64,000 bases of DNA from positions 13,157-77,156 of the forward strand of contig JAFDGW010000006.1 of assembly GCA_019309115.1 (NCBI GenBank), in the 5' to 3' direction. The notes beneath the pieces were generated by a model. That model was not told the origin of the DNA. It did no database searches and worked only from the letters and a program-made list of their open reading frames with translations. The translations under genes and the position numbers were made by a program. Below, in pieces: positions 2,916 to 63,767 of this stretch. The stretch comes from Deltaproteobacteria bacterium. Lineage in GTDB: Bacteria; Desulfobacterota; Syntrophobacteria; Syntrophobacterales; Thermodesulforhabdaceae. Within the stretch, counting starts at the first letter, position 1; the number at the start of each line of letters is the position of its first letter.

Positions 2916-3019
2916 GATATCCTCCTCGTTTTTTGAAAAACAATTATGCTTCACTTACTTTTGAACGATGGTACAAAAAAGCTCGAGAGGAGCAAACTAA
3001 AAATCGCGAGGAATCGAAA

Positions 3020-3550
3020 ATGAACAACAAGGTGCCATCCAGAGAAACTTGTCTTGCATTGATGAAATCAGCAAAAATGCCCGAGCATATAATGAGCCAC
3101 TCCTTTGTAGTGGAAGAGGTATCGACCATCATTGCACGGCTGTGCATTGAACGGGGATATGAGTTGTCCATCGAACTGGTGTCGGCAGCGGCTTTACTAC
3201 ATGACATTGCCAAGGCAAAATGCATAGAAGAACACTGTCATCACGCGGAAGTTGGGGCGGAAATAGTACGTGCCTGGGGCTATCCTCAAGTGGCAACGAT
3301 TGTTGAAGAACATGTTTCTCTCTCCATGGCCGATATAATCGCCTGCCCAACGGAGTCACTCATTGTGAATTACGCCGACAAAAGAGTGCTACACGACCGA
3401 GTGGTTTCCTTGGACCGGAGATTTGAATATCTGATTGAACGTTATGGCACGACACCTCAGAAAAGGAATCTCTTGAATTTCAAATGGAAGCTTTACAGGA
3501 AGCTGGAAGCGCGGTTGAGGCAGGTTACGGCAAATGATTTGGCTTTTTAA
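3020..3550 (+). CDS. HD-domain phosphohydrolase
   Basis: The H...HD signature (LLHDIAK) is followed by further conserved His residues. The start is placed at the internal ATG with GAGGA upstream, because the longer track ORF would overlap the divergent gene. Confidence 0.6.
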   Translation: MNNKVPSRETCLALMKSAKMPEHIMSHSFVVEEVSTIIARLCIERGYELSIELVSAAALLHDIAKAKCIEEHCHHAEVGAEIVRAWGYPQVATIVEEHVSLSMADIIACPTESLIVNYADKRVLHDRVVSLDRRFEYLIERYGTTPQKRNLLNFKWKLYRKLEARLRQVTANDLAF

Positions 3551-5127: not shown

Positions 5128-5150
5128 GACGGCAAGGGAGATTGTTGGCA

Positions 5151-5675
5151 ATGAACGGAAAATCTCTTTCTTCTGAATTGAAGGAAATAATCACGGGAGC
5201 AAAGCGACTCTATGCTAATTATGGAAAAGATTTGCTCAGTGATTTAGGGTTCATGAAGGTTTTGGACGATTATGAAAAAGCAATTGAGGACACGGCTCGT
5301 GCCATGACCAGCCTGAGCATTTGGAAAATGTGCGCCATCTGTGGAAACTCTCCAAAGGGAAGTTGCTGCGCACCTGAAGTTGCCATTTGGTATGATGCTG
5401 AACTTGTCTTTGTAAATCTTCTGATGGGCTGCGACGTAGAAAAAGGTCAGTTCTACAAAGATCATTGTTTCTTCCTTGGCAAAAACGGCTGTATCCTGAA
5501 AGCGCGCCATTATTACTGTGTTCACTATCTTTGCCCGGAAATTAAAGCGATCCTTTCAGCTGCTGAGCTCGATATGCTTTACAGAACAATCGGACGCGAA
5601 ATACTGACCGGATCTAATGTGTTGCACTACTTCGAGCAATGGCGCAAACACCATGATGGCGTGATTGTGGCGTGA
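5151..5675 (+). CDS. Cys-rich protein, divergent YkgJ/UPF0153-like cysteine-cluster protein
   Basis: CAICGNSPKGSCC followed by CFFLGKNGCILKARHYYCVHYLCP resembles the CxxCGxCC ... CxFL..GCxIY..RPxxCR pattern. The ATG at 5151 has AGGGAG upstream. Confidence 0.4.
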   Translation: MNGKSLSSELKEIITGAKRLYANYGKDLLSDLGFMKVLDDYEKAIEDTARAMTSLSIWKMCAICGNSPKGSCCAPEVAIWYDAELVFVNLLMGCDVEKGQFYKDHCFFLGKNGCILKARHYYCVHYLCPEIKAILSAAELDMLYRTIGREILTGSNVLHYFEQWRKHHDGVIVA

Positions 5676-5683
5676 TTGTGGCG
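5658..5683. repeat. 11-nt tandem direct repeat (GGCGTGATTGT x2.4) spanning the stop codon of the preceding gene
   Basis: Read directly: ggcgtgattgt ggcgtgattgt ggcg. The TGA stop at 5673-5675 lies inside the second copy. Confidence 0.9.
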
Positions 5684-5704
5684 TTTTTTCTGGAAAAACA
5701 CGCC
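5680..5704 (+). other. Inverted repeat/hairpin (10 bp with one bulge). It could be a weak terminator of the upstream gene or an upstream activator site for the sigma-54 promoter.
   Basis: ggcgtttttt ctgg aaaaacacgcc, centred about 139 bp upstream of the predicted sigma-54 start site. It has no clean U-run. Confidence 0.3.
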
Positions 5705-5804
5705 TTCAAAATTGTTTATACCCCATTCAATTAAATTGTTTTTCATCATAGAATTTTTTTAAGTTTCGGTATCTTATTTCCGAATTGGGTTCTTTTGGCA
5801 AGGA

Positions 5805-5820
5805 TGGCACTACTCTTGCA
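5805..5820 (+). promoter_or_regulatory. sigma-54 (RpoN) -24/-12 promoter
   Basis: TGGCAC-tactc-TTGCA matches the TGGCAC-N5-TTGC core at all ten fixed positions. It is intergenic, and the predicted TSS is near 5831. Confidence 0.5.
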
Positions 5821-5830
5821 CCATTCAGTG

Positions 5831-5901
5831 TAACAGAAAAAGTAACCAACTCTTTCCTCCTCGTCTCGCTAACCGGTCTAGCCCCGCCGGTTAGCTTTTT
5901 T
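5831..5901 (+). ncRNA. Candidate ~70-nt sigma-54-dependent small RNA or terminated leader of the downstream chlI/D-like gene
   Basis: Bounded by the sigma-54 element and the intrinsic terminator. It contains an apparently unstructured CU-rich tract (cucuuuccuccucgucuc) complementary to Shine-Dalgarno sequences. No ORF of meaningful length lies inside it. Confidence 0.3.
5868..5901 (+). terminator. Rho-independent terminator (orphan, ~190 nt after the nearest upstream stop codon)
   Basis: The 9-bp stem gctaaccgg/ccggttagc has a 10-nt loop and is followed by tttttt. Confidence 0.65.
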
Positions 5902-6001
5902 ATTTTATACTATGACTCGGTCGTACTTGACCCCAGTGGTTCTAGGTGCTAACTGGAAATGGTGATTATTTCACAAAGTTATCTGGAGGCGCATACGTTC
6001 A

Positions 6002-7936
6002 ATGGAAAAGGTACGATTCCCTTTTTCGGCCATCGTTGGTCAGGAGCTTATGAAAAAAGCTCTGTTGCTCAATGTTGTTGATCCGTCAATAGGGGGCGTT
6101 TTGATACGGGGACAGCGAGGGACGGCGAAGTCAACAGGGGTCAGAGGACTCATAGACTTGTTGCCGGAGATCCGAGTCGTAAAACACTGTTCTTTTCAGT
6201 GCGATCCAGACGACGTTGAGAATCTTTGTCCAGAGTGCAGGAAAAGACTCAAGGATCAGGGGACCCTTCCTGTGGTGTCGAGACCCATAAGGCTTGTTAA
6301 CCTCCCGATAGGCACAACGGAAGATCGCTTGTTGGGAACCATTGACATAGAAGAAGCCATAAAGGAAGGCAAGAAGGCTTTTGAACCGGGGTTACTTGCC
6401 GAAGCCCATCGAGGCATACTTTATGTGGATGAAGTTAACCTGTTGAACGATCAGATTGTGGATCTTCTCTTGGATGTAGCAGCCTCAGGCGTGAACATAG
6501 TGGAAAGGGAAGGCATTGGCTTTTCCCACGCAAGTCGCTTTGTTCTCGTGGGAACTATGAATCCCGAAGAAGGTGACCTGCGTCCTCAATTGCTCGACAG
6601 GTTTGGCCTCTGCGTTACCGTAAGGGCTGCATCATCCGTTGACGAACGACTCGAAATTATAAAGAGGCGGCTGGAATTTGAAAAAGATCCCGTTGCCTTC
6701 AGGGCCAGATGGAAACACGAGGACGATGTTTTGCGGGAGATCATTAAACGTGCACGGCAGGCTATCCATTCTATCGAGATTCCTGAAGAGATGTATCGAC
6801 TTGCTGCTCAGCTCGCCATTGCGATGGACACAGATGGTCACAGAGCCGAGATAACCATCATAAAAGCAGCTCGAGCCAATGCTGCACTAGAAGGGCGGAA
6901 AAAGGTAACTCGAACAGACATTGAACTTGCGGCGAGGCTAAGCCTCCCACACCGAGTTAAGAAAAACCCGCTTGAGAAAACCGAATTCGACGAAAGTAAA
7001 ATTAGGAGGATTATCGAAGAGAACAACGATCGCAAAGAAAAAATCAATGCCGAGTGGGAACCGACAATACAGAACAAGCCGGTCAAAGCCGATAAAGAAA
7101 TTATCTGCAAGTCCCCGCTGGAATGTGTAACTCACATTTGCAAAGGGACCCTACCGAATGTGATGCCGTCAATTCCATGGCATCGAATCCAACCCGGGAA
7201 TCATCCCGGTCGGAGGTTTCCACTTCCGACGACACAGAAATCCGGTTTCTGTTCGGGGGTGCGTTATCCTACCAATGGAGACAATGGTCATGACATATCT
7301 ATAATTGGTACACTTCGAGCTGCTGCTCCTCATCAGAAATTTCGGAACAGAAACGGAAAGATGGTCATCAGCGACAGCGACATTCGTCTCAAGAAAAGAC
7401 AGCGCAGGTGCGGCATAACCACGGTCATAGTTGTCGATTCCAGCGCATCTATGAGAACCAACGATCGCATGTCCAAAACCAAGGGCATTATTGAAGCCTT
7501 AATACGGGATCTATATTTGAAGCGGGATCGCCTTGGCATAATAACGTTCAGACACCAGCAGGCAGAATTGCTGCTGCCCATAACCAGCAACATGCACGAT
7601 GCTGTATCTAGGGTAGAGGAGCTTCCGGTCGGAGGTAGAACTCCTCTTGCCCTTGGACTGGATCTAGCCTTAAGACAGTTAAAACAGGAAGTTTTCAAAA
7701 ATCCGGAATGTGTACCTCTTCTTATTCTTTTTTCAGACGGAAGACCCAATGTAAGCTGCTTTGGAGGCGACCCCCTGGATGAAACCCTTGCCTATGCAAG
7801 GGAAACGCGGAGGCTTGGCATTCAGGCCATTTTCGTGGACACGGAACTGGACCCAATGGCCATGGGTTACGGCTATATAATCGCCCAGCGCATGAACGCA
7901 ACCTACATTCCTATGGACAGGCTCATGAAACACTAA
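6002..7936 (+). CDS. Mg-chelatase-like AAA+ ATPase fused to a vWA domain (ChlI/BchI-ChlD/BchD type; putative metal chelatase ATPase component)
   Basis: Walker A GQRGTAKST, Walker B LYVDEVNLL, a BchI-like Cys insertion (CSFQCDPDDVENLCPEC), and a C-terminal vWA MIDAS motif (VVDSSASM). Confidence 0.8.
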   Translation: MEKVRFPFSAIVGQELMKKALLLNVVDPSIGGVLIRGQRGTAKSTGVRGLIDLLPEIRVVKHCSFQCDPDDVENLCPECRKRLKDQGTLPVVSRPIRLVNLPIGTTEDRLLGTIDIEEAIKEGKKAFEPGLLAEAHRGILYVDEVNLLNDQIVDLLLDVAASGVNIVEREGIGFSHASRFVLVGTMNPEEGDLRPQLLDRFGLCVTVRAASSVDERLEIIKRRLEFEKDPVAFRARWKHEDDVLREIIKRARQAIHSIEIPEEMYRLAAQLAIAMDTDGHRAEITIIKAARANAALEGRKKVTRTDIELAARLSLPHRVKKNPLEKTEFDESKIRRIIEENNDRKEKINAEWEPTIQNKPVKADKEIICKSPLECVTHICKGTLPNVMPSIPWHRIQPGNHPGRRFPLPTTQKSGFCSGVRYPTNGDNGHDISIIGTLRAAAPHQKFRNRNGKMVISDSDIRLKKRQRRCGITTVIVVDSSASMRTNDRMSKTKGIIEALIRDLYLKRDRLGIITFRHQQAELLLPITSNMHDAVSRVEELPVGGRTPLALGLDLALRQLKQEVFKNPECVPLLILFSDGRPNVSCFGGDPLDETLAYARETRRLGIQAIFVDTELDPMAMGYGYIIAQRMNATYIPMDRLMKH

Positions 7937-35299: not shown

Positions 35300-36496
35300 T
35301 CAGCTTTTACCGGTCACTAACTTGGCCAGCTGTGGGTCCAGACTCAGTGCATATTTTACAAAACCCGGCGTAGCGCGATATCGCAGCAAAGGTTTGCCGT
35401 CTTTAGTCGTTATCCCCGGTTGTTCCGATATAAACAGGCCTTCAATTCCGGTAAAGTTTACAAGCATAGCATAGCCATCATCTGGCCCCAGAACCATCAT
35501 GGCAGTGGCTAGAGCGTCGGCAAAGGCGGTAGTATTTCCGATAATTGTAACACTTGCCGTTTTTTGAACGGTGAAACCCGTTCTTGGATCCACCACGTGA
35601 GTGTATTTCACGCCGTTTTTAGTTATGTAACGTTCGTAATCGCCAGACGTTACAACACTTCCATCAGATATTCCAAGAACGGCAATCAGCCTGTCGGGAT
35701 CTCTCGGATGTCTCACGCCTATTTTCCAGGGATCTCCGGATGGAGTTTTTCCCATGGCATATATGTCGCCACCTGCATTAATGAGTGCTCCTCGTATGCC
35801 CATTTTTTTCAGGAATTCTATTGTTCTATCGACTATGAATCCTTTGGCTATGCCGCCAAGATCAATCTTCATACCCTTTTTTTGAAATCTTACCGTTCTG
35901 GCGGCAGGATCCAACTTCAGGTATTGCCAGCCCACAAGTTTTAATGCTTTCATCAGTTGCTCTTGGTCAGGAACTTTAAAGTTGTTCTTCCTGTAAATGG
36001 GCCAAAGTTCCAGGAGTGGACCGACGGTGATGTCAAAGGCACCTCCCGTGATACGGCTCACTTCTACCGATTCTTCGATGACTTGGAACAGCTCGTCACT
36101 TACATGGAAGGGCCCTGGATATCCCCTGGCATTCAGGTGGGCGATTTCGCTATTCCGATTGTGTGAGTTCATTTTATTAGAAAGTTTTTTCATGAAAGCA
36201 AAAGCCTTATCCAGCACGCGCGAGGCTTCCTTCGGGTTTGAATGAACCACCTGAATACTCACGACAGTATCCATAAGGAGTTCATCACGGCGGAAAATTT
36301 CTTCCTTGCCTCGGTTTGCGCAGGCATAGGAAAGAGATAAAACCAGGAATATTGTTATGATGACGGCTGTTTCGCGCGATTTTCCTTTCTGCCAGGTAAA
36401 AAGCCGTGAGCGTTTAATGATAAACCCCTTCTGATGGAAGGACTTCTTCAATAAATCCCTCACTTGGGCGTAAAGTAATGTCACCTTCGATGTCAA
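35300..36496 (-). CDS. apbE: FAD:protein FMN transferase ApbE (lipoprotein)
   Basis: Lipobox LSLSYAC, DLGGIAKGF, VVTSGDYERY. The start is uncertain: TTG or GTG candidates at 36451-36496 all overlap the rng 3' end. Confidence 0.8.
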   Translation of the reverse strand: MTSKVTLLYAQVRDLLKKSFHQKGFIIKRSRLFTWQKGKSRETAVIITIFLVLSLSYACANRGKEEIFRRDELLMDTVVSIQVVHSNPKEASRVLDKAFAFMKKLSNKMNSHNRNSEIAHLNARGYPGPFHVSDELFQVIEESVEVSRITGGAFDITVGPLLELWPIYRKNNFKVPDQEQLMKALKLVGWQYLKLDPAARTVRFQKKGMKIDLGGIAKGFIVDRTIEFLKKMGIRGALINAGGDIYAMGKTPSGDPWKIGVRHPRDPDRLIAVLGISDGSVVTSGDYERYITKNGVKYTHVVDPRTGFTVQKTASVTIIGNTTAFADALATAMMVLGPDDGYAMLVNFTGIEGLFISEQPGITTKDGKPLLRYRATPGFVKYALSLDPQLAKLVTGKS

Positions 36497-37925
36497 TTTT
36501 CACTCCGTATCTATTTTCCAGGTCCACAAGGTCCGGTCGTTTCTGGTTAAGTAAGTAAAAGGCTACTTCCGGACAAACCCGTACTTTTACGCCCGAAATC
36601 CCATTGGAAAAGCTTAATCTATCCCATATCTTTCGCAAAAACGCCAGTGATGCCGCTTCCACCGTTTGTACCATGCCATTTCCGCCACAGTACGGACATT
36701 CACGGTATGAACCGAATTGAACATTCAGTCCAGTGTGCTGTCGAGACATTTCCAGAAGTCCAAATCGAGAAATTCTGCCGATGCTGAGCTTCGCTTTGTC
36801 CTTTTTTGCCGCATTTCTTATCGTTTGTTCTACCTTTCTCTTGTGAACCGGCTTAGACATGTCAATAAAATCCACCACCACAAGCCCACCAAGGTCCCTC
36901 AAGCGCAGTTGGCGTGGGATTTCTTCGGCCGCTTCTAAGTTAACCCTGAACGCAGTTTCTTCAATGTCCGGTTCGGACTTCGCCTTGCCTGAATTAACAT
37001 CGATCGATACTAATGCTTCTGTCGGTTCGATTATGAGGTATCCTCCAGATTTCAGCGGTACTCGTTTTTGAAATATCTGTTCTATTTGGGTTTCTATACC
37101 GTAGTGACTAAAAAGAGGTGTTTTATTACGATGAAGTTCCACTATCTTTTGGTGGCGTGGACTTACTATTCTTAAAAAATCCTTAACTTCCCTGTAAACC
37201 TCCTTCTCGTCCACTATTATTTTGGAAATGTTAGGGCAAAAATAGTCTCGTACTACCCGTATGGCAAGGCTTCTTTCCCTATAAATAAGCGATGGTGCCG
37301 GTGCTTTCCTAGCTCGTCGTTTGATGTCTTCCCATATTTTCAAAAGGTATCTAAGATCCCTTACGATTTCCCTCTTGGGCCTTTGAGCCGCAGCTGTTCG
37401 TATTATCACACCAATTTCGTCGGGAAGCTTTAGTTCATGAACCGTGCGCTTGAGACGCTCTCGCTCCTCTTCGTTGGTGATTTTTCTTGATATTGCCCGA
37501 CTGGGATTACCAGGCATCAGGACTACGTATCTTCCTGCCAGGGAAATGTATGTCGTGAGGGCCGCTCCTTTGCCACTGACACCCTCTTTGGTTACCTGAA
37601 CGAGGACCTCCTGACCGGGATGAATCAGGTCCTGAATTTTCGGTTCTCCTGTCGGATCGTGTGAAAAATACTCGGGATGAATTTCGTCCAGCGACAGAAA
37701 ACCGTTTCGCTCCGCACCTATATTCACGAATGCCGCCTGGAGAGAGGGTTGAACCTGTTCGACAATGCCCTTGTAAATATTTCCCAGGTGCTTGGTGTGG
37801 GTAGCCGTTTCTATAAAAAAGCCTTCGAGAGAAAAACCTTCGACAATGGCTATTCTGAATTCTTCAGGATGGATCGCATTGATCAGGAGAAGCTGGCCGT
37901 GATCACTGCAAGACTTTCTATTCAT
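36414..37925 (-). CDS. rng: Ribonuclease G (RNase E/G family)
   Basis: S1 domain GNIYKGIVEQVQPSLQAAFVNIG, the catalytic-core DIEET...VVVDFIDM, and the CPYCGG Zn-link. 503 aa. Confidence 0.85.
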   Translation of the reverse strand: MNRKSCSDHGQLLLINAIHPEEFRIAIVEGFSLEGFFIETATHTKHLGNIYKGIVEQVQPSLQAAFVNIGAERNGFLSLDEIHPEYFSHDPTGEPKIQDLIHPGQEVLVQVTKEGVSGKGAALTTYISLAGRYVVLMPGNPSRAISRKITNEEERERLKRTVHELKLPDEIGVIIRTAAAQRPKREIVRDLRYLLKIWEDIKRRARKAPAPSLIYRERSLAIRVVRDYFCPNISKIIVDEKEVYREVKDFLRIVSPRHQKIVELHRNKTPLFSHYGIETQIEQIFQKRVPLKSGGYLIIEPTEALVSIDVNSGKAKSEPDIEETAFRVNLEAAEEIPRQLRLRDLGGLVVVDFIDMSKPVHKRKVEQTIRNAAKKDKAKLSIGRISRFGLLEMSRQHTGLNVQFGSYRECPYCGGNGMVQTVEAASLAFLRKIWDRLSFSNGISGVKVRVCPEVAFYLLNQKRPDLVDLENRYGVKIDIEGDITLRPSEGFIEEVLPSEGVYH

Positions 37926-50939: not shown

Positions 50940-51647
50940 ATGGCTGGAATTTTACAGAGAATTTTCAAGATAGGTCAGGCTGAGGCTCACAGCGTGGTGG
51001 ATAAGCTGGAAGATCCTATAAAGTTGACGGAGCAGGGTATCAGGGATTTGAAAAAAGACCTTTCGGTAGCAATGCAGAGTCTTGCCGAGGTAAAAGCCTT
51101 GGCAATTCGGTTGAAGAAGCAAATGGAAGATGCTCGGCGAGCGGCGAAGGATTACGAGAGAAAAGCTATGCTTATCCTCGAAAAAGCAAAAAAAGGTGAG
51201 CTTGATCCTCAGGATGCAGAACACCTGGCAATGGAAGCCTTAACGCGAAAGCAAGAAAGCGAAGACCGGGCTACCCAGCTGGCCACAGACTACGAGGCCC
51301 AGAACAGAATGGCAATGGAGCTCCAAGCAAAGGTTGAACAGTTAAAGAAGCAAATCACCACTTACGAAAACGAGCTGATCACCCTGAAGGCTCGTGCTAA
51401 AACGGCCCAATCCATGCGGAAGATTAACCAACAACTGGCTAAGGTTGATTCGTCCAGCACACTAGCCATGCTTGAGCGGATGAAGCAAAAGGTAGCAGAG
51501 GAAGAATCTCTTGCGGAAGCTTACGGAAATGTAGCTGCTGAAACAGCTTCGGTGGATCAAAAGATAGATCGGGCTTTGGCGACGCCTTCATCTTCTTCCG
51601 CCATGTTGGAACTTGAAGAGCTGAAAAAGAAGGTTGGTTTGGTTTAA
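50940..51647 (+). CDS. pspA: PspA/IM30 family protein
   Basis: MAGILQRIFKIGQAEAHSVVDKLEDPIKLTEQGIRDLKKDL and a long coiled coil. It starts 10 nt after the channel gene. Confidence 0.85.
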   Translation: MAGILQRIFKIGQAEAHSVVDKLEDPIKLTEQGIRDLKKDLSVAMQSLAEVKALAIRLKKQMEDARRAAKDYERKAMLILEKAKKGELDPQDAEHLAMEALTRKQESEDRATQLATDYEAQNRMAMELQAKVEQLKKQITTYENELITLKARAKTAQSMRKINQQLAKVDSSSTLAMLERMKQKVAEEESLAEAYGNVAAETASVDQKIDRALATPSSSSAMLELEELKKKVGLV

Positions 51648-54035: not shown

Positions 54036-54111
54036 ATAAGCACTTGCCGCGACTTTCTCCTGCTGCTAAGAAAATATGATATATATGGCGAGGAGGAAGA
54101 GAGGGTGAGTT

Positions 54112-55071
54112 ATGTACAGGATGGGTTGGCAAAGGTTTGTGGTGTTAATTTTAGTTATAGTTGTGGGAGTTCAGGCAGAATCAGCTTGTGGCGCCTTTGT
54201 TGGCTCTAACAAGGTCTATCTGTGGCCTGACAGTTTGTTTCCAGAGTTATTGCTTCAGAGGATGGATGTGAACGTTGCTGGTAGCGAATTAATCACGGAA
54301 GAACATCCTCTTATTGACTTGGCACTGGAGAATTTTCTGCGTCCTGCAAATTTAGTCGGGATTCAGAAGAGTTTGGATAGAATGGGGCCCTACGAGGGGA
54401 GTATGAGGAATATTTTTATGAAGGCTGGGCTTCCGGATAACCTTATTTACCTGGTTGTGGTGGAAAGCAGTGCCAGGATTCGTGCCCGGTCTTATGCCGG
54501 AGCTGCTGGCCTGTGGCAGCTGATGCCAAAGACGGCAATGTCTCTTGGATTGAAGGTTAACAGCACCGTTGATGAGAGGCTGGATCCCATCAAGTCAACC
54601 TGGGCCGTTGTGAGATATTTGAAACATCTGTATGCTCGATTTCATTCCTGGGATCTGGTTTTTGCCGCTTATAACATGGGAGAAAATGGCCTAGCGCGTA
54701 GGCTGAAGAAGCATAAAACTAGTAATTTTTTCGAATTGTGTAAACGTAAAGCAATTCCTAGACAAACTCGCTATTATGTACCTCGTGTTTTTGCTGCTAT
54801 TAGAATAGGCTCTAATCCGTCGCTGTACGGTATTTCTCTTGGTAGGACGTTGTCGGTTTACGCAACGGATACGGTGGCAGCTTCCGGCAAGGTTTCGCTA
54901 AAGGATGTTTCTGTGTTTTTAGAGGTACCTTTGGCCGTTTTATTGAAGCTAAATCCGGCCGTGAAGAATCCTTATGGTAGGCTAGAAAAGGGAACTTTGA
55001 TACATGTTCCCTGGGTTGCTCGTAAACGACTATTAGAGGTTTCTGAAGTGCTTGGCCAGCGTAGGGGATAA
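54112..55071 (+). CDS. Lytic transglycosylase (SLT domain), MltD-like
   Basis: Signal peptide and the catalytic VVESSARIRARSYAGAAGLWQLMPKTA block. The C-terminal segment is LysM-like. Confidence 0.7.
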   Translation: MYRMGWQRFVVLILVIVVGVQAESACGAFVGSNKVYLWPDSLFPELLLQRMDVNVAGSELITEEHPLIDLALENFLRPANLVGIQKSLDRMGPYEGSMRNIFMKAGLPDNLIYLVVVESSARIRARSYAGAAGLWQLMPKTAMSLGLKVNSTVDERLDPIKSTWAVVRYLKHLYARFHSWDLVFAAYNMGENGLARRLKKHKTSNFFELCKRKAIPRQTRYYVPRVFAAIRIGSNPSLYGISLGRTLSVYATDTVAASGKVSLKDVSVFLEVPLAVLLKLNPAVKNPYGRLEKGTLIHVPWVARKRLLEVSEVLGQRRG

Positions 55072-56231: not shown

Positions 56232-58139
56232 ATGCAGCCTTTTGAAACTGTAGTGGTTGATACTGATCTTTTGATTCTTGGTGGCGGTATGTCCGCTTGT
56301 GGAGCTGCCTTTGAGGCGGCATACTGGGCTAAAAAACATGGTCTGAAGGTAACGGTCGTTGATAAGGCGGCTATGGACCGTTCTGGTGCCGTGGCCATGG
56401 GGCTTTCCGCTATCAACCAGTACATTGGTTATGGTAAAGGGCAGAATACCTGTGAAGACTATGTAAAATATGTACGTCAGGACCTCATGGGCATTTCCCG
56501 TGAAGACCTGGTTTACGACATTGCCCGCCATGTTGATTCCACGGTGCATTTGTTTGAGAAATGGGGACTTCCCATTTGGAAGGATGAAAAGGGCGAGTAC
56601 GTCCATGAGGGACGCTGGCAGATCATGATCAACGGTGAGTCTTACAAGGTTGTCGTGGCAGAAGCTGCTAAAAATGCTCTGGCAACGCTAGGTGACAAGG
56701 GCGAAATTTACGAGCGCGTATTTATCGTTGAGCCTTTGATGAACGGTGATACCTGTGTAGGTGCCGTTGGTTTCAGTGTTCGTGAACCCAAGTTCTACGT
56801 TTTCAAAGCGAAGGCTACTATCGTGTGCATGGGCGGTGCTGTGCATGTGTTCCGTCCGAGGTCAGTGGGTGAAGGTCTTGGTCGTGCCTGGTATCCGCCT
56901 TGGAACTGTGGCTCCTCCGCTTACTTCACCATTAAGGCCGGCGCTGAAATGACCTGTCAGGAAGTTCGTTTCATCCCTGTAAGGTTCAAGGATGGATACG
57001 GTCCTGTTGGTGCATGGTTCTTGTTGTTCAAGTCTCGTGCTACTAACGCATTCGGTGGCGAGTACATGGTTGAAAGGGCTGGCGAGCTTGAAAAGTGGGC
57101 ACCCTATGGAACAGGCAAACCCATTCCGGCCAACCTGAGGAACTGGCTCGGTATGGAAGATATTATGGAAGGTAAGGGTCCCATCTACATGAGGACCGAA
57201 GAAGCCATCGCTAACTTGGCTGCCGCTTACAAGGATGATCCGAAGGCATTCAAGCGGAAAATGAAAGAACTTGAAAACGAGGCATGGGAAGACTTTCTTG
57301 ACATGACCATTACTCAGTCGTTCCTGTGGGCAGCTACTAATGTTAAACCTGAAGAAAAGCCCTCAGAAATTGCAGCGGCCGAACCTTACTTCATTGGATC
57401 CCACTCCGGTGCATCCGGTGCATGGGTCTGTGGTCCTGAAGATCTGATGCCCGATGAATACAAAGAAATGTGGAAGGACATTGGAATCTACAACCGTATG
57501 AGCACAGTTAAGGGTCTGTTCTGCGCCGGTGACGCTTCGGGTGCTTCCAGTCATAAGTTCTCCTCTGGTTCTCACGCTGAAGGTCGTATTGCTGCTAAGG
57601 GTGCTATTGCTTACATCCTCGACAACAATCAGGCTCCTGAAGTTGATATGGGTAAGGTTGAACAGCTCAAAGAAACTATACTTAAGCCTCTGAAGATCTT
57701 CGAAGAGTATTCCGCACTCTCCAGCGATCCCGAAATTAACCCGAATTACGTCATGCCCAAGATGTTTATGTTCCGCCTCCAGAAGATCATGGACGAGTAC
57801 GCTGGTGGCGTAACCTCGCAGTTCACCACTAACAAACCGTTGCTCGAAAGGGCTCTTGAACTGTTGCAGTTCCTGAAAGAAGACTCTGAAAAGCTGGCGG
57901 CTCGCGATTTGCACGAGCTGATGAGGGCGTGGGAGAACGTACACCGTATGTGGATTGCTGAAAGCCACGTGCGTCATGTGCTGTTCCGCGAAGAGTCTCG
58001 TTGGCCTGGTTATTACTTCCGCGCTGACTATCCTAACATGGACGAGCAGAACTGGAGATGCTTTGTGAATTCCGTTTACAATCCTGAAACAGGTGAGTGG
58101 ACGTTGAAGAAGGTTCCCGTTGTAAATCTACCAGTCTAA
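56232..58139 (+). CDS. aprA: Adenylylsulfate (APS) reductase alpha subunit
   Basis: DLLILGGGMSACGAAFEA FAD fold. Length and sequence are typical of AprA, and it lies directly downstream of aprB. Confidence 0.95.
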   Translation: MQPFETVVVDTDLLILGGGMSACGAAFEAAYWAKKHGLKVTVVDKAAMDRSGAVAMGLSAINQYIGYGKGQNTCEDYVKYVRQDLMGISREDLVYDIARHVDSTVHLFEKWGLPIWKDEKGEYVHEGRWQIMINGESYKVVVAEAAKNALATLGDKGEIYERVFIVEPLMNGDTCVGAVGFSVREPKFYVFKAKATIVCMGGAVHVFRPRSVGEGLGRAWYPPWNCGSSAYFTIKAGAEMTCQEVRFIPVRFKDGYGPVGAWFLLFKSRATNAFGGEYMVERAGELEKWAPYGTGKPIPANLRNWLGMEDIMEGKGPIYMRTEEAIANLAAAYKDDPKAFKRKMKELENEAWEDFLDMTITQSFLWAATNVKPEEKPSEIAAAEPYFIGSHSGASGAWVCGPEDLMPDEYKEMWKDIGIYNRMSTVKGLFCAGDASGASSHKFSSGSHAEGRIAAKGAIAYILDNNQAPEVDMGKVEQLKETILKPLKIFEEYSALSSDPEINPNYVMPKMFMFRLQKIMDEYAGGVTSQFTTNKPLLERALELLQFLKEDSEKLAARDLHELMRAWENVHRMWIAESHVRHVLFREESRWPGYYFRADYPNMDEQNWRCFVNSVYNPETGEWTLKKVPVVNLPV

Positions 58140-58167
58140 GTAGGTTTGTATCTGTAAGGTGGTGAAA

Positions 58168-58203
58168 TAAAACCCCGGGGTTATAGTGGCCCCGGGGTTT
58201 TTT
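58168..58203 (+). terminator. Rho-independent terminator after aprA
   Basis: The ccccgggg/ccccgggg stem is extended by A:U pairs and followed by a T-run. Confidence 0.8.
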
Positions 58204-58288
58204 GTATGCAGATTTGCCCATTGTGAAAATCTGTGCTATTGGGTTGCCGGCTTGATGGTCAAAAACAGAAGATACTGGAGGGCTGAGG

Positions 58289-59548
58289 ATGACAGAGGCG
58301 ACTAATCGGAGCATTCTTGTTGTTGGCGGCGGAATGAGCGGACTTAGCGCCGCTGTGGAAGCTGCTGAGGCGGGATGTCATGTTTACATTGTGGAAAAAG
58401 AACCGTACCTTGGCGGCCGCGTTGCCAGAATGAACAAATACTTTCCGAAGCTTTGTCCTCCGTACTGTGGTCTCGAAATCAACTTCCGGAGGATCAAGAC
58501 CAATCCATTAATTAGGTTTTTTACCCTGTCTGAAGTCGTGGCAATTTCAGGTGAGCCGGGAAATTATACCGTCAGGGTTAGGGAAAATCCCAGGTATGTG
58601 AACGAAAAGTGTACGGCCTGTGGAAAATGTGAAGAGGCTGCCACAACAACTATTTCTAATCCGTTCAATTACGGTATAGACACTGTTAAGGCCATTTATT
58701 TGCCAAACGATTTTGCTTTCCCTTTCCGCTATGTGTTGGATCCTTCGGTGATAGGTACGGAGGAAGCCGAAAAGATTAAAAGTGCCTGTCCTTATGGTGC
58801 AATTGACCTCGATATGCAGCCTCGTGAATTTGAGCTTGTGGTAAGTGCCATAATCTGGGCTACAGGATGGCAGCCGTACGACGCGGAAAAGATTCTTTAT
58901 TACGGCTTTGGCAAGAATCCAGACGTTATCACCAATGTAATGATGGAGCGATACGCTTCGCCGGATGGGCCAACAGCAGGGCAGATTATTCAGCCATCAA
59001 CGGGTCAGCCGGCAAAAAAGGTGGCTTTTGTACAATGCGCCGGTTCCAGAGACGAAAACCATTTGCCTTACTGTTCCGGAGTATGTTGTCTTGCGTCACT
59101 GAAGCAGGCAACTTATGTACTGGAACAGTATGAAGATGCTCAGGTTTGCATCTATTATATAGACATAAGGGCCCTTGGCCGTTACGAAGATTTCTACAAC
59201 CGGGTGAAGGAGGATTCTCGGGTTTCGTTTATCAAAGGCAAAGCTGGTGAAATAAGACGTACCGAGTCTGGCAAGACGATGGTTCAGGCGGAAAATCAAA
59301 TTACCGGCGAGATTACCAGGGAAGAATACGATCTTGTTGTGCTGGCAACGGGAATGGTTCCTACTACGGCCGTTGATAAGCCTCCCGTTGATATTCCCGC
59401 AGATGAAAACGGCTTTTTACTGGAAACCAACGGCAATATCGGAATTATACCGGCAGGATGTGTTAAGCGTCCGGTGGATGTGGCTGCCTGTGTTCAGGAT
59501 GCAACGGCAGCGGCTCTAAAAGCTCTTCAGTTGACGGCGAGGAGGTAG
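58289..59548 (+). CDS. qmoA: Quinone-interacting membrane-bound oxidoreductase complex subunit A (HdrA-like flavoprotein)
   Basis: ILVVGGGMSGLSAAVEAAEAG. It is HdrA-like and sits immediately downstream of aprBA. Confidence 0.9.
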   Translation: MTEATNRSILVVGGGMSGLSAAVEAAEAGCHVYIVEKEPYLGGRVARMNKYFPKLCPPYCGLEINFRRIKTNPLIRFFTLSEVVAISGEPGNYTVRVRENPRYVNEKCTACGKCEEAATTTISNPFNYGIDTVKAIYLPNDFAFPFRYVLDPSVIGTEEAEKIKSACPYGAIDLDMQPREFELVVSAIIWATGWQPYDAEKILYYGFGKNPDVITNVMMERYASPDGPTAGQIIQPSTGQPAKKVAFVQCAGSRDENHLPYCSGVCCLASLKQATYVLEQYEDAQVCIYYIDIRALGRYEDFYNRVKEDSRVSFIKGKAGEIRRTESGKTMVQAENQITGEITREEYDLVVLATGMVPTTAVDKPPVDIPADENGFLLETNGNIGIIPAGCVKRPVDVAACVQDATAAALKALQLTARR

Positions 59549-59554
59549 GCGAAA

Positions 59555-61774
59555 ATGGAGAAGAAGGTAGGCGTTTATATATGTCAGGGATGTGGCATTG
59601 GTGATGCGCTGGATGTAGAGGCGCTCAAGTCGGTTGCAACGGACGAATTTGATGTTGCTGTCTGCAAAAGTCATGAATGTCTGTGTCATAAGCCGGGCAT
59701 TGAGCTCATAAAGAATGATATCAAAAGCGATGGGGTTAACGTGGTCGTAATAGCAGCCTGTTCACCTCGGGTCATGTACGACGTATTTGACTTCGGATCG
59801 GACAAAATCGTTGAGCGTGTTAATTTGAGAGAGCAGGTTGTGTGGTCTCATCCTCCGCAAGACGAAGATACACAGATGCTTGCCGAGGATCAACTCCGGA
59901 TGGGTCTTGCCAAAGCGGCCGAGGTGGAACTGCCCGAGCCGTTCGTTGCCGAGGATCTAAGCAAGAAGATTCTGGTCGTTGGCGGCGGGCTCACGGGAAT
60001 GGTTGCTGCACGAGAAGCTGCTAGGGCAGGGTATGACGTGGTGTTGGTGGAAAAAGAGCCTGAGTTAGGGGGGTATTTGAGGAAAATTTACAAGCTCCCA
60101 CCTGCAACCCCTCCTTATGAAAAACCTGAAGATGTAAAACTGGACGAGTTCGTTTCTGAAATAACTTCTCTGGACAAGGTCACCGTTTACACAAATGCAA
60201 CGGTGGCATCCATTGAAGGTGCTCCTTGCATGTTTGATGCTATTATTGTTCAAGGCAGCAAGGAGATTAAAGAGCGGGTAGGTGCCATAGTTCTAGCAAC
60301 CGGTGCAGTACCTTATGATGCTTCCAAGCTGGAACACTTGGGATTCGGCAAATATTCAGACGTGGTAACAATCCAGCAGGTCGAGGAGATGTTCCTTTCC
60401 GGTGAGGTCAAACGTCCTTCTAACGGTCAGCCTGTGAACAGCGTGGCTTTTATACTCTGTGCCGGATCAAGGGATCCTGAACATCTTCCATACTGCTCTT
60501 CAAGCTGTTGTGTGGAAGTTTTGAAACAAGTTTCCTATTTTAAAGAAAATAATCCCGACTGTACCGTTTACGTTTTTTATAAAGATCTTCGAGCCACTGG
60601 CGTTTACGAGCTCTTTTATAAACACCTGCAAAAGCAAAAAGTTTTCTTTATCAAAGGAGATGTTACTGGCATTGAAGACGATGGGTCGGGCAACCTTGTT
60701 TTGACCGCGGAAGATAATCTTACCCGTTCGCCGATAATGACGGAGGCTGTTGATTTGGTCGTTCTTGCGACTGGCATGGTTCCTACTACGGCTTTTGGAG
60801 AGCCATACAAAGCGCCGACGTCGGAGGAAGGTGAAGAAGTTGAAGAAGTTCCACCGGACACCATTTTGGTTTCGAACCTGTTAAACCTGAAGTACAGACA
60901 GGGTCCGGAGATTCCGGCTCTCAAATATGGATTTCCCGATTCCAACTTTATCTGTTTTCCTTATGAATCCCGTCGAACGGGAATCTATCCGGCCGGTTCC
61001 GTGAGATCGCCTATGGATTATGTACGTGCCATTGATGATGCTGCGGGTGCAGCTATGAAGGCTATTCAGTGTGTTGAGTTAACATCGCAAGGTAAAGCGG
61101 TGCATCCGAGAGCTGGAGACACAAGTTTTCCGGAATTTTTCATGCAAAGGTGTACTCAGTGTAAGCGGTGCACCGAGGAATGTCCGTTTGGAGCGATTAA
61201 CGAGGATGAGAAAGGCAACCCCCTTCCGAATCCTACTCGCTGTCGGCGCTGTGGAGTGTGCATGGGTGCCTGCCCTGAAAGGATAATATCTTTTAAAAAC
61301 TATTCGGTGGGCATGATCGGAAACATGATCAAAGTCATCAATGTTCCTGATGAATACGAGGAAAAACCACGAATCCTCGTGCTTGCTTGCGAAAACGATG
61401 CCTATCCCGCTCTGGATATGGCCGGGTTGCGCAGACTGCAGTACAACCCCTGGGTCAGGGTCATACCTCTGAGATGTCTCGGTTCGATGAACATTATCTG
61501 GATTGCCGATGCCCTTTCAAAAGGCATCGATGGTATTCTACTCTTGGGGTGCAAATATGGAGACGATTATCAGTGCCATTTCATTAAAGGTAGCGAACTG
61601 GCGAACGTTCGCATGAGCAAAATCAAGGAAACTCTTGACAGGCTTGTGCTTGAGTCGGAGCGGGTGAGGGTAGAAGAGGTTTCCATAACGGATTACCACA
61701 AACTTCCGAAGATACTCGATGAGTTTGCCGAAAAGCTGGAAGAGCTTGGACCGAATCCTTACAAGGGATTCTAG
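59555..61774 (+). CDS. qmoB: Qmo subunit B (HdrA-like flavoprotein with 2x[4Fe-4S] and an MvhD-like C-terminal domain)
   Basis: VVGGGLTGMVAAREAARAG, CTQCKRCTEECP, CRRCGVCMGACP, and the C-terminal LVLACENDAYPA MvhD-like segment. Confidence 0.9.
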   Translation: MEKKVGVYICQGCGIGDALDVEALKSVATDEFDVAVCKSHECLCHKPGIELIKNDIKSDGVNVVVIAACSPRVMYDVFDFGSDKIVERVNLREQVVWSHPPQDEDTQMLAEDQLRMGLAKAAEVELPEPFVAEDLSKKILVVGGGLTGMVAAREAARAGYDVVLVEKEPELGGYLRKIYKLPPATPPYEKPEDVKLDEFVSEITSLDKVTVYTNATVASIEGAPCMFDAIIVQGSKEIKERVGAIVLATGAVPYDASKLEHLGFGKYSDVVTIQQVEEMFLSGEVKRPSNGQPVNSVAFILCAGSRDPEHLPYCSSSCCVEVLKQVSYFKENNPDCTVYVFYKDLRATGVYELFYKHLQKQKVFFIKGDVTGIEDDGSGNLVLTAEDNLTRSPIMTEAVDLVVLATGMVPTTAFGEPYKAPTSEEGEEVEEVPPDTILVSNLLNLKYRQGPEIPALKYGFPDSNFICFPYESRRTGIYPAGSVRSPMDYVRAIDDAAGAAMKAIQCVELTSQGKAVHPRAGDTSFPEFFMQRCTQCKRCTEECPFGAINEDEKGNPLPNPTRCRRCGVCMGACPERIISFKNYSVGMIGNMIKVINVPDEYEEKPRILVLACENDAYPALDMAGLRRLQYNPWVRVIPLRCLGSMNIIWIADALSKGIDGILLLGCKYGDDYQCHFIKGSELANVRMSKIKETLDRLVLESERVRVEEVSITDYHKLPKILDEFAEKLEELGPNPYKGF

Positions 61775-61795
61775 CTTCATACGGAGGAGAAGGTG

Positions 61796-63053: not shown

Positions 63054-63767
63054 ATGAGTGAGCAGGAAGAACGAATTTTGACGGCTGAAGATACCTTGAA
63101 TTTTGACTGTCATGAAAATCTCCCTTGTTTCACGCATTGCTGCAGAGATGTAAATATTTATCTCACCCCCTACGATGTGCTGCGTATGAGGACCGCGCTG
63201 GGCATGGGATCATCAGAGTTCCTTAACCAATACACCCGTTCCTTCCTCGCGAAGGTTACCCATATTCCAGTAGTGCAGCTTCTTATGAATCCGGACACTC
63301 TTTATTGCTATTTTGTAACGGACTCCGGTTGCAAAATTTACAATGATCGTCCTTGGGCCTGTCGAATGTACCCACTGGACCTGCATCCCCACAAATCCGG
63401 CTGTTACAGGATAATAGCGGGAGCGGAAAAGTGCTTTGGTTTAAAGGAAAACAAGACATGGACGGTTGGGGAATGGCTGGCATCTCAGGGTGTGGGTCCC
63501 TATGATGAAATGGAACGCTTATACCAAAGTGTCCTTCCTGCCGGATTCAAACCTGGTAGTCCAATGGATGCCGGCCTGGGGAAGCTTCTTTTTTTGGCCT
63601 ACGATACGGATATTTTCCTTGAGATGTTGAAAGACAGTAAGTTCCGTAGATTGCATGGAATTGACGAAAAAGAGTTTGAAATTGCCTGCAGAGATGCAGA
63701 AGCCTTATTGCGTCTTGCTTTTGATTATATACGAGAACAATTACGGGAGTTATATCCCTTGACCTAA
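63054..63767 (+). CDS. YkgJ/UPF0153-family cysteine-cluster protein
   Basis: CHENLPCFTHCCRD...LTPYDVLRM and CYFVTDSGCKIYNDRPWACRMYP. Confidence 0.7.
   Translation: MSEQEERILTAEDTLNFDCHENLPCFTHCCRDVNIYLTPYDVLRMRTALGMGSSEFLNQYTRSFLAKVTHIPVVQLLMNPDTLYCYFVTDSGCKIYNDRPWACRMYPLDLHPHKSGCYRIIAGAEKCFGLKENKTWTVGEWLASQGVGPYDEMERLYQSVLPAGFKPGSPMDAGLGKLLFLAYDTDIFLEMLKDSKFRRLHGIDEKEFEIACRDAEALLRLAFDYIREQLRELYPLT

Follow-up and report, generated by a model that had tools for sequence, protein, structure and literature searches.

A candidate sigma-54-dependent small RNA gene with a conserved, putative anti-Shine-Dalgarno tract in Syntrophobacteria

Non-coding RNAs (ncRNAs) that depend on sigma-54 and an enhancer-binding protein (EBP) are documented in Desulfovibrio vulgaris, and in strain Hildenborough they lie downstream of DVU0653 and DVU0679 and upstream of DVU2357 and DVU3282 (Rajeev 2011, PMC3333781; Kazakov 2015, PMC4641369). 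CJnc230/FlmE of Campylobacter is another sigma-54-dependent small RNA (sRNA) (PMC11187230). The Qrr1-5 sRNAs of the Vibrionaceae (RF00378), which are about 100 nt long, use sigma-54 and one dedicated EBP, LuxO. Pxr of Myxococcus, GlmY, CrcZ/CrcY and NrsZ are stand-alone sRNA genes with a sigma-54 promoter and a specific EBP as sole input. The ar14/'cuckoo'/CcsR (RF02344) family and the RsaE/RoxS family of Firmicutes carry CCUCCUC(CC)-type tracts that pair with Shine-Dalgarno (SD) regions. To our knowledge, the promoters of these two families are not of the sigma-54 type. Both CcsR and RoxS have links to redox or oxidative stress.

The locus described here lies in a 64-kb stretch of DNA, analysed over its whole length and referred to as the window. 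An upstream ORF stops at 5675 (stop codon 5673-5675) and is followed by an intergenic gap of 326 bp (5676-6001) and by a ChlI/D-like gene, chlID, with a GGAGG at 5985-5989 and its ATG at 6002. We consider it probable, at roughly 80%, that positions 5657-5901 form a complete, self-contained gene for a ~70-nt small non-coding RNA that would pair with SD regions. The features of the locus are as follows.

5657 to 5689, plus strand: putative upstream activating sequence made up of three 11-bp direct repeats in tandem (TGGCGYGATTn)
5805 to 5820, plus strand: predicted sigma-54 promoter, TGGCAC (-24 region), tactc spacer, TTGCA (-12 region), an exact consensus match
5831 to 5901, plus strand: predicted sRNA of about 71 nt, its start placed from the -12 element to within 2 nt
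5831 to 5847, plus strand: variable purine-rich 5' segment UAACAGAAAAAGUAACC, weak hairpin possible with CUCUUU
5848 to 5862, plus strand: single-stranded tract AACUCUUUCCUCCUC, proposed seed, complementary to GAGGAGGAAAGAGUU
5868 to 5901, plus strand: intrinsic terminator, 9-10 bp stem GCUAACCGG(U)/(G)CCGGUUAGC, loop UCUAGCCCCG, U6 tail
5927 to 5955, plus strand: probable sigma-70-type promoter of the ChlI/D-like (putative cobaltochelatase) gene, outside the sRNA

The putative promoter reads TGGCAC at 5805-5810, tactc at 5811-5815, TTGC at 5816-5819 and A at 5820. It matches the consensus at 11 of 11 positions, with exactly 10 nt from the GG of the -24 element to the GC of the -12 element, and would depend on sigma-54 and an EBP in vivo. 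TGGCAC-N5-TTGC has a single exact occurrence in 2 x 64 kb. In shuffled windows 0.14 exact matches are expected and at least one was found in 12 of 100 shuffles, so the single window is by itself merely suggestive; the decisive evidence that the locus is not due to chance comes from comparison among homologues. All that the original prediction had stated about the letters of the promoter, the CU tract, the stem, the T-run, the gap and the ribosome-binding site was verified; the exact sigma-54 core that it had proposed is unique in the window, and the homologues keep this element at the same place. No rpoN or EBP gene was found within the 64-kb window. Near the homologues, neither rpoN nor an EBP gene was consistently linked, the one EBP-like gene, in L045 only, being 5 kb away and unrelated-looking. 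EBP orthologues have been reported for Syntrophobacter fumaroxidans (PMC3333781, PMC4641369).

Homologues were collected by a metagenome scan for the pattern TCCTCCTC-N3-12-TAACCGG-N6-14-CCGGTTA, which covers the CU tract and the terminator stem and is promoter-free. The scan returned 67 loci, comprising 58 true homologues and 9 chance matches, the latter being approximately the number estimated by hand beforehand. The true homologues share the layout aAGAGAAACCAACTCTTTCCTCCTC-linker-GCTAACCGG-yyCTAGCCCCy-CCGGTTAGC-T5-9, and the T-run is present in all of them. The element TGGYRY-N5-TTGCW, scoring 9 to 11 of 11, was found in every homologue with at least 60 nt of upstream DNA (55/55), ending 30-39 nt before TCCTCCTC, compared to none of the 9 chance matches. 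Since the pattern fixes 7 of the 9 stem bases per arm and 8 CU-tract bases, the invariance of the homologues at these places is partly circular, and only five synteny-derived lineages are unbiased at the pattern-fixed positions. These lineages (L007, L008, L009, S. fumaroxidans L077 and L079), which were found through a neighbouring protein only, all carry the repeats, the promoter, the CU tract and the terminator.

The unit of promoter, transcript and terminator occurs as about 50 distinct sequences in many gene contexts, ranging from thermophilic Thermodesulforhabdus-like lineages to peatland Syntrophobacteraceae and including both syntrophic and sulfate-reducing Syntrophobacteria. The -24/-12 elements and the transcript are conserved, unlike the flanks and the spacer between promoter and start. 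Within the main group, the predicted transcript is conserved in sequence from about +5 onward. The copy in S. fumaroxidans MPOB lies between a DUF255 thioredoxin-like gene and an FMN-reductase gene, with the predicted RNA at ~3142706-3142777 on the minus strand of CP000478.1 and its start near 3142777. The sRNA is absent from the DUF255 locus of L078 (an FWPV01 metagenome contig, protein named Desulfoferrobacter suflitae). Neighbours of the element include thioredoxin-like, FMN-reductase, AhpC (peroxiredoxin) and rubrerythrin genes. The comparison of related intergenic regions that had been proposed with the original prediction showed both the promoter element and the hairpin to be conserved, and a covariance model, R1, was built; its sole match in the 64-kb window is at 5829-5905 (85.7 bits, E = 9e-20).

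Upstream of the promoter, an array of 11-bp direct repeats (TGGCGTGATTG at 5657-5667 and again at 5668-5678, TGGCGTTTTTT at 5679-5689) overlaps the stop codon of the upstream ORF, with a degenerate fourth unit, TGGCGCAAACA, at 5640-5650. The array at 5657-5689 is the sole one of its type in the window, where 0.01 are expected. Nearly all homologues have two to five copies of TGGCGYGATT or of the variant ATGTCKTGATT upstream of the promoter. The 51 unique upstream regions of 200 nt hold 120 matches in total, against 0.019 per 200 nt in the rest of these loci, an enrichment of more than 100-fold. The repeats are strand-specific, with only 2 matches on the opposite strand, and have a modal spacing of 11 bp at -160 to -60 relative to the -24 element. 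In strain L003, which is 99% identical, the two G-to-A differences both affect position 11 of the repeat, which is not conserved. Conserved, strand-specific arrays are thus found within the range of an EBP site (~70-200 bp upstream), and the array is presumably bound by an EBP. The original prediction had placed the EBP site in an inverted repeat at 5680-5704 and had also read this hairpin as the upstream gene's own terminator. A conserved upstream activating element does exist, but it consists of the direct repeats rather than the inverted repeat, whose left arm is overlapped by the array. With a weak fold of -8.4 kcal/mol (z = -0.9, not significant) that is unconvincing as a terminator, and with no conservation, the inverted repeat was rejected in both roles. 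In ~770 kb of loci, further repeat arrays were found only as coding-sequence coincidences within an acyltransferase gene. One locus, L075, carries a second, different sRNA-like unit with the same kind of repeats.

The 5' segment of the predicted transcript can be read as consecutive A-R-N triplets; these triplets and the U tail are only suggestive of a link to a chaperone (Hfq or ProQ). The possible 5' hairpin has no covariation support, with 81% of cells paired and no pair changed on both sides. The CU-rich stretch singled out by the original prediction, cucuuuccuccucgucuc at 5850-5867, is present and overlaps the near-invariant, unpaired tract at 5848-5862. Within this proposed seed, 14 of 15 columns are invariant over 50 distinct sequences, and the remaining one reaches at least 90% conservation, with C replacing U in L009, L016, L018 and L060. 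The seed tract is unpaired in the consensus fold and in individual folds, and CCUCCUC is left single-stranded between two hairpins. The terminator stem pairs GCTAACCGG (5868-5876) with CCGGTTAGC (5887-5895) and is followed by T6 (5896-5901); in its loop (5877-5886), AGCCCC at 5880-5885 is invariant or nearly so family-wide. The clean 9-bp stem and T-run to 5901 that had been predicted were listed by a terminator scan and recovered on folding, as the 75-nt RNA folds at -19.8 kcal/mol with the terminator formed (z = -4.4; 0 of 200 shuffles as good). Compensatory changes are limited to the two outer stem pairs (G-C to A-U in 1 sequence and to G-U in 6; A-U to G-C in 4), and the support for the structure is thermodynamic and from sequence invariance, not from covariation. 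In keeping with the earlier claim of a transcript free of any meaningful ORF, no conserved ORF covers the sRNA on either strand.

Like the D. vulgaris ncRNAs, which come from the same broad sulfate-reducer lineage, the locus combines a small predicted transcript with a -24/-12 promoter and, upstream of it, a putative array of EBP sites, and the DVU0653 half-site TGTCCGCGAT loosely resembles the repeat unit TGTCGCGATT. In contrast, the DVU0653 sites are 18-bp palindromes ~30 bp apart rather than 11-bp direct repeats, and two of the four D. vulgaris ncRNAs lie downstream of their own EBP gene and a third is divergent from its EBP, whereas no EBP gene is linked here. No Rfam family joins the D. 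vulgaris ncRNAs to this RNA, and the comparison is by promoter, sites and gene position, not by RNA sequence. The 11-bp repeat is absent from the Desulfovibrio supplementary site lists. With Qrr, the locus shares a long invariant single-stranded pairing region ahead of a terminator, and the terminator stems are nearly alike (GCCAACCGC/GCGGUUGGC in Qrr and GCUAACCGG/CCGGUUAGC here, both containing CCAACU). However, it has neither the four-hairpin architecture of Qrr nor its 32-nt box or LuxO site, appears to be single-copy and belongs to a different phylum. The Qrr model scored the S. fumaroxidans copy at 24 bits against a gathering score of 50, in an alignment partly on promoter bases, and had no match in the window at E <= 10; the sRNA falls outside the Qrr family (RF00378).

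It likewise falls outside the alpha-proteobacterial ar14 family (RF02344), scoring 17.4 bits against a gathering score of 58.8. The ar14-type families have repeated C-rich motifs (CCUCCUCCC) in hairpin loops, compared to a single tract in an inter-hairpin linker here. There is no sequence or model similarity to Pxr, GlmY, CrcZ/CrcY, NrsZ or CJnc230/FlmE, and no Rfam match at gathering score; moreover GlmY and CrcZ, among others, act by protein titration rather than through an anti-SD seed. At gathering score, Rfam 15 gave no match in the window and only tRNAs in eight homologous loci. Text searches of the literature on the sequence and on sigma-54 sRNAs in Geobacter and Syntrophobacter turned up no description of this RNA. 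Both searches agree with the earlier statement that this is not a known RNA. The predicted sRNA is a new family among the sigma-54-dependent sRNAs.

In the proposed mechanism, an EBP would bind the helically phased 11-bp direct repeats (TGGCGYGATTn, 5657-5689) and activate sigma-54 RNA polymerase at TGGCAC-N5-TTGCA (5805-5820). Transcription would start near 5831 and stop at the intrinsic terminator (5868-5901), yielding an RNA made up of a variable purine-rich 5' end, the single-stranded AACUCUUUCCUCCUC and a terminator hairpin with the C-rich loop CUAGCCCC. The CU tract would then pair with GAGGAGGAAAG-type SD regions of trans-encoded mRNAs, and translation initiation would be blocked. Judged from the sequence, pairing of the CU tract with SD regions is the most likely mode of action. 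Because CCUCC is complementary to any GGAGG SD, target specificity is not accounted for by this core. That the unit is transcribed, how its RNA pairs and with which targets, we infer. No neighbouring gene family showed a consistent case of extended complementarity to the seed, and a search of the window for the 13-mer complement gave 5 matches compared to 2.1 expected, which is not significant. Among 50 window ORFs (mean pairing energy -13.9 kcal/mol, sd 5.5), the only strong candidate was a site at 54087-54103, which precedes an SLT transglycosylase gene and would pair at -31.3 kcal/mol.

Alternatively, the RNA could be regulatory without pairing to SD regions, by titrating or recruiting a protein via the terminator stem and CUAGCCCC loop or via the CU tract, or by pairing through the C-rich loop instead of the linker. 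The AGCCCC loop and the stem are conserved far past the needs of termination, the five synteny lineages included, and no specific target emerged in the window or the neighbouring genes. We nevertheless regard this as unlikely, as a long invariant single-stranded pyrimidine tract before the terminator is the usual layout of a pairing sRNA, repeats of a protein-binding motif such as GGA are lacking, and a strong candidate pairing site does exist in the window. A more basic doubt is that the promoter match is fortuitous and that the hairpin simply terminates the upstream HD/DUF4139/177-aa operon. About 12% of shuffled windows are expected to hold an exact match, and since the hairpin at 5680-5704 is too weak for an upstream terminator, the upstream operon may well extend to 5901. 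A terminator shared with the upstream mRNA would not contradict an sRNA, however, and the co-conservation, with constant spacing, of promoter, repeats and transcript across more than 50 distinct sequences makes a fortuitous match very improbable. The 177-aa Cys-rich upstream protein has no Pfam or NCBIfam match and does not resemble the main group's CxxCxxCC (YkgJ) neighbour. It is even harder to believe that the conserved block represents the beginning of a minus-strand gene for a small protein, together with its ribosome-binding site (reverse complement GAGGAGGAAAGAG-TTG; in the window, an ORF of 40 aa at 5849-5727). The window and the main group do have a strong SD and a correctly spaced TTG, but the ORF is missing in 9 of 51 loci and elsewhere varies in length between 6 and more than 97 codons. 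Several subgroups have lost the TTG. This antisense ORF was rejected for its erratic length and because its conservation ends after four codons, which mirror the sRNA.

The original prediction had offered as its alternative an attenuated leader of the ChlI/D gene. In general form, the RNA would be a sigma-54-driven, terminator-attenuated leader that regulates a downstream mRNA via read-through, that of chlID in the window and, in most Syntrophobacteraceae, that of the FMN-reductase gene. Both in the window and in 31 FMN-reductase loci, the downstream gene shares the strand of the RNA. The FMN-reductase start codon follows the terminator by only 40-55 nt in many loci of the main group, leaving little room for a separate promoter; in those loci the RNA may double as the 5' end of an mRNA that reads through into the FMN-reductase gene. 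In the window, by contrast, chlID has a probable promoter of its own downstream of the terminator, TTGACC-N17-TAACTG, with a -35 TTGACC at 5927-5932, a 17-nt spacer, a TG at 5947-5948 and a -10 TAACTG at 5950-5955, and a conserved 5'-UTR box, TTTCACAAA, at 5969-5977. CTTGACC-N17-TAnCTG and TTTCACAAA are kept upstream of the chlID orthologues in L001 and L004-L006, which have a different upstream neighbour and lack the sRNA, and the promoter is conserved in the window and five orthologous loci without the sRNA. In these orthologous loci, linkage of the sRNA to chlID was not seen outside the window's own species. The unit is also intact in the loci, at least 17 plus the L079 group, that have a convergent gene next to it on the downstream side, and the RNA is nearly invariant while the downstream gene changes between lineages. 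Neither the fixed same-strand downstream family nor the conserved anti-terminator of an attenuator or riboswitch leader was found, the consensus fold being the terminator alone. A leader function is therefore decidedly unlikely, and the ChlI/D version of it is disfavoured. The locus has what is expected of an sRNA gene, being a non-coding unit that carries a promoter and an intrinsic terminator of its own and stays intact regardless of which genes flank it and which way they face. The unit has a defined anatomy, is conserved as a whole and is independent of its neighbouring genes. Collectively, the joint conservation of promoter, transcript and terminator strongly supports the primary reading of the original prediction, an independent ~70-nt sigma-54 sRNA.

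Post-transcriptional regulation is almost unexplored in syntrophic propionate oxidisers and related sulfate reducers, organisms with key roles in methanogenic peat, sediments and digesters. The locus supplies a sharply defined regulatory unit, with putative activator sites, a sigma-54 promoter, a seed (14/15 invariant) and a terminator, and since the element is present in the cultured and sequenced S. fumaroxidans MPOB, it is testable at once. The repeat array offers a handle for finding the activator and the rest of its regulon, and covariance model R1 can seed an Rfam family. More speculatively, and with only a modest chance of being right, the RNA could be the output of an unrecognised signalling module of Syntrophobacteria that combines a repeat-reading EBP, a small sRNA regulon and a global anti-SD brake. 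Sigma-54 activators normally bind inverted repeats, and an EBP recognising 11-bp direct repeats in helical phase would be unusual among them. Such an EBP would drive a small sRNA regulon that includes the second repeat-bearing sRNA-like unit in L075, and the extended anti-SD seed would globally damp the translation of strong-SD mRNAs. Given the persistent placement of the element among thioredoxin-like, FMN-reductase, peroxiredoxin and rubrerythrin genes, this damping would possibly serve as a redox or oxygen-stress brake in strict anaerobes.

We read window positions 5400-6300 and confirmed every coordinate of the original prediction, a sigma-54-dependent small RNA (sRNA) of ~70 nt in the 326-bp gap between two open reading frames (ORFs). 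The features of the region are:

5142-5675, forward strand: upstream ORF, a 177-aa Cys-rich protein
5657-5689: repeat array TGGCGTGATTG, TGGCGTGATTG, TGGCGTTTTTT, covering the stop codon of the upstream ORF
5805-5810, forward strand: -24 element TGGCAC, followed by a 5-nt spacer
5816-5820, forward strand: -12 element TTGCA
5850-5867, forward strand: pyrimidine (CU) tract
5868-5895, forward strand: terminator stem GCTAACCGG/CCGGTTAGC, followed by T6 up to 5901
5927-5932 and 5950-5955: TTGACC and TAACTG of a promoter-like block before the ChlI/D-like gene (chlID)
5969-5977: TTTCACAAA box in the chlID 5' UTR, just before the ribosome-binding site and common to the same loci as the block
6002-7936: ChlI/D-like ORF, downstream of the sRNA unit

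The exact -24/-12 pattern had been called rare by chance, and it occurs once in the window. Since 0.14 matches are expected and 12% of shuffles contain at least one, this lone match is only suggestive when taken by itself. The hairpin at 5868-5901 was listed by a terminator scan, in keeping with its reading as an intrinsic terminator, and a 75-nt RNA folded at -19.8 kcal/mol (z = -4.4). Searching the window against Rfam 15 gave no match at the gathering score, and none overlapping the sRNA region at E <= 10, consistent with an RNA outside the known families.

The window derives from an uncultured sulfate reducer (aprA-qmoABC at 56232-62962). Its ChlI/D protein shares 72% identity with the Thermodesulforhabdus norvegica homologue, and the remaining relatives are Syntrophobacterales. 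HD-domain, DUF4139/MuiA-family and 177-aa protein genes lie 5' of the sRNA, and a putative cobaltochelatase (ChlI/D fusion) gene lies 3'. Elsewhere, the window encodes PspA/IM30 (50940-51647), RNase E/G (36414-37925) and a CxxCxxCC (YkgJ-type) protein (63054-63767), whose family neighbours the sRNA in Syntrophobacteraceae. The 177-aa protein has no Pfam or NCBIfam match and belongs to a very small family, with only 11 cluster representatives (P0121-P0131) among 5.8 billion. Its gene usually lies 3' of a DUF4139/MuiA-family gene, and members of the thermophilic subgroup have it 5' of the sRNA.

Three of these 11 relatives, at ~50% identity, have the unit downstream (loci L007, L008 and L009), in the order -24/-12 element, a variable 25-35 nt, CTTTCCTCCTCGT, GCTAACCGG-loop-CCGGTTAGC and T-run. 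We then scanned metagenomes with a pattern of CU tract plus stem from which the promoter was purposely omitted. The 67 loci recovered comprised 58 homologues and 9 chance matches; the latter had no T-run, and their number was close to a prior hand estimate. Three homologues were truncated upstream, and all of the other 55 carried TGGYRY-N5-TTGCW at 9 to 11 of 11 positions, ending 30-39 nt 5' of TCCTCCTC. The main group was identified as Syntrophobacteraceae through a flanking DUF255 protein, which also pointed to Syntrophobacter fumaroxidans MPOB. In this strain the unit lies on the minus strand between DUF255 thioredoxin-like and FMN-reductase genes (L077 6233-6330, equal to CP000478.1 ~3142706-3142803). 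In a fifth synteny-derived lineage, L079, every part of the unit is present. Promoter and hairpin are thus kept in relatives, both in the 55 of 55 scan homologues and in the lineages found by synteny. Across 53 distinct promoter-to-terminator sequences the -24/-12 bases are kept, the following 13-25 nt vary, and conservation returns near predicted transcript position +5. Among 50 distinct RNAs, 14 of the 15 columns of AACUCUUUCCUCCUC are invariant and the remaining one reaches at least 90% conservation; the terminator loop has an invariant GCCCC and, before it, an A conserved to at least 90%. The scan pattern biased the sampling of stem and seed (the CU tract). A covariance model built from the homologues, R1, matched the window once, at 5829-5905 with 85.7 bits.

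The consensus fold is the terminator alone. A weak 5' hairpin appears in addition in individual folds, where the purine-rich 5' end pairs with CUCUU(U) and CCUCCUC is left unpaired between both hairpins. By pair counting, compensatory changes fall in two outer terminator pairs only; the 5' hairpin has none and is for this reason an unproven model. The inner stem is invariant, partly since the scan pattern fixed its bases; in the five lineages free of that bias it is invariant or changes only to wobble pairs. As for coding potential, a reverse-strand ORF with a perfect Shine-Dalgarno (SD) sequence and TTG start was rejected, being missing or 6 to >97 codons long and unconserved.

The region had alternatively been read as an attenuated leader of chlID, the gene that follows the terminator. 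This reading fails, because chlID appears to have its own conserved promoter beyond the terminator and orthologous loci lack the unit. At chlID orthologues (69-72% protein identity; L001, L004-L006) the upstream gene differs from that of the window, the -24/-12 element and terminator are absent upstream of chlID, and R1 found no sRNA copies. What these loci share with the window is CTTGACC, 17 nt and TAnCTG preceded by TG. Together with the TTTCACAAA box, this block is kept in six loci whose upstream DNA is otherwise unrelated (window 5927-5977; L001:2912-2940; L004-L006 before position 3001). We read TTGACC-N17-TAACTG, which lies 3' of the 5868-5901 terminator, as a conserved sigma-70-type promoter; the TTTCACAAA box could be a regulatory site. 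chlID would therefore be transcribed independently, with the sigma-54 unit an insertion between two genes.

Upstream of nearly all copies of the sRNA lie 2-5 tandem 11-bp direct repeats, TGGCGYGATTn (variant ATGTCKTGATT in thermophilic subgroups). At <=1 mismatch, 51 unique 200-nt upstream regions held 120 matches, compared to 0.019 per 200 nt elsewhere in the same loci, and only 2 matches were on the opposite strand. Spacing is most often 11 bp, and every match lies 60-160 bp 5' of the -24 element. Among sigma-54 activators, sites arranged as direct repeats one helical turn apart are uncommon. The 64 kb window has a single such array. In a 99%-identical strain (L003), promoter, seed and terminator are unchanged and the array differs solely in two units, each at the degenerate 11th position. 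Regulatory site and C-terminus overlap, since the array itself supplies the final seven codons (D-G-V-I-V-A-stop, 5653-5675) of the 177-aa ORF, and the 99% strain has V to M within this C-terminus. The inverted repeat at 5680-5704, earlier proposed as an enhancer-binding-protein (EBP) site, folds weakly (z = -0.9) and is a by-product of the third repeat unit. The 64 kb window encodes neither an EBP motif nor RpoN, and a search of the homologues' neighbourhoods did not reveal the activator near any sRNA copy.

A different sigma-54 unit at L075:5140-5335 (forward strand) has repeat-like sites GGCGTAAATGTGACGTGATTATGGCGAAC, then TGGCATGTATTTTGCC, followed after ~35 nt by the hairpin GCCAACCGGCTC-TTTTAA-GGGCCGGTTGGC with a poor T-run. 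R1 gave it only 17 bits; possibly the unit encodes another sRNA belonging to the same regulon. The contig also encodes a PAS-domain protein that clusters at 90% with one named from Desulfoferrobacter sp.

The next gene encodes an FMN reductase on the same strand in 31 loci, often only 40-55 nt past the terminator, and the main group is likely to have read-through into it. Several peat Syntrophobacteraceae loci (L020, L046, L052, L047, L013, L030) have a near-palindrome, TTGCATGCAA, immediately past the terminator, in the first 20 nt after the T-run. The short spacing and TTGCATGCAA point to co-transcription by read-through, perhaps with an additional operator. A convergent gene (CxxCxxCC protein, guaA and others) comes next in at least 17 loci. 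In the hot-spring subgroup, tRNA genes lie a few hundred bases from the sRNA (L010:1240-1313, 3130-3201; L016:9540-9613), in L010 one of them 166 nt past its terminator. Redox-defence genes (DUF255 thioredoxin-like, AhpC, rubrerythrin, desulfoferrodoxin, glutaredoxin) are common nearby, a hint of a possible stress link that does not amount to evidence.

Mechanistically, the simplest proposal is that the CU tract base-pairs with ribosome-binding regions of the GAGGAGGAAAG type; we give such anti-SD action about even odds. The best candidate site in the window, GGCGAGGAGGAAGAGAG (54087-54103, forward strand), lies 5' of an ORF for an SLT-domain lytic transglycosylase (54112-55071) and complements the tract plus its lineage-specific CGUC extension. 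Its duplex energy, the best of 50 ORF starts, was -31.3 kcal/mol compared to a mean of -13.9 (sd 5.5). A 13-mer complement search of the window was not above chance, and the neighbouring gene families gave no consistent target.

In Desulfovibrio vulgaris four sigma-54/EBP-dependent ncRNAs are documented, of which two lie 3' of the cognate EBP gene and another is transcribed divergently from it (PMC3333781, PMC4641369). For DVU0653, the published sites are palindromes of 18 bp, TGTCCGCGATCGCGGACA, whose half-site bears only a loose resemblance to the 11-bp unit. Qrr is the nearest analogue, both by logic and by terminator sequence. Its model scored the S. fumaroxidans copy (L077:6243-6330) at 24 bits (E = 0.012, 161-nt search), where the gathering score is 50, and gave no score on the window copy. 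This sub-threshold match is due to a near-identical terminator stem and a common CCAACU, and probably reflects convergence of two sigma-54 sRNAs. The ar14/cuckoo family reached 17.4 bits compared to its gathering score of 58.8. Literature text searches did not find the sequence, nor any such RNA described for Syntrophobacter or Geobacter.

Collectively, promoter, transcript and terminator are conserved together, by metagenome scan and by synteny, as the sRNA reading had held. With a probability of roughly 0.8-0.85, we conclude that the unit is a conserved gene for a non-coding RNA, transcribed independently from a sigma-54 promoter. Judged by its sequence, this predicted RNA is a new family of a kind already known, the EBP-activated, sigma-54-dependent small RNAs.
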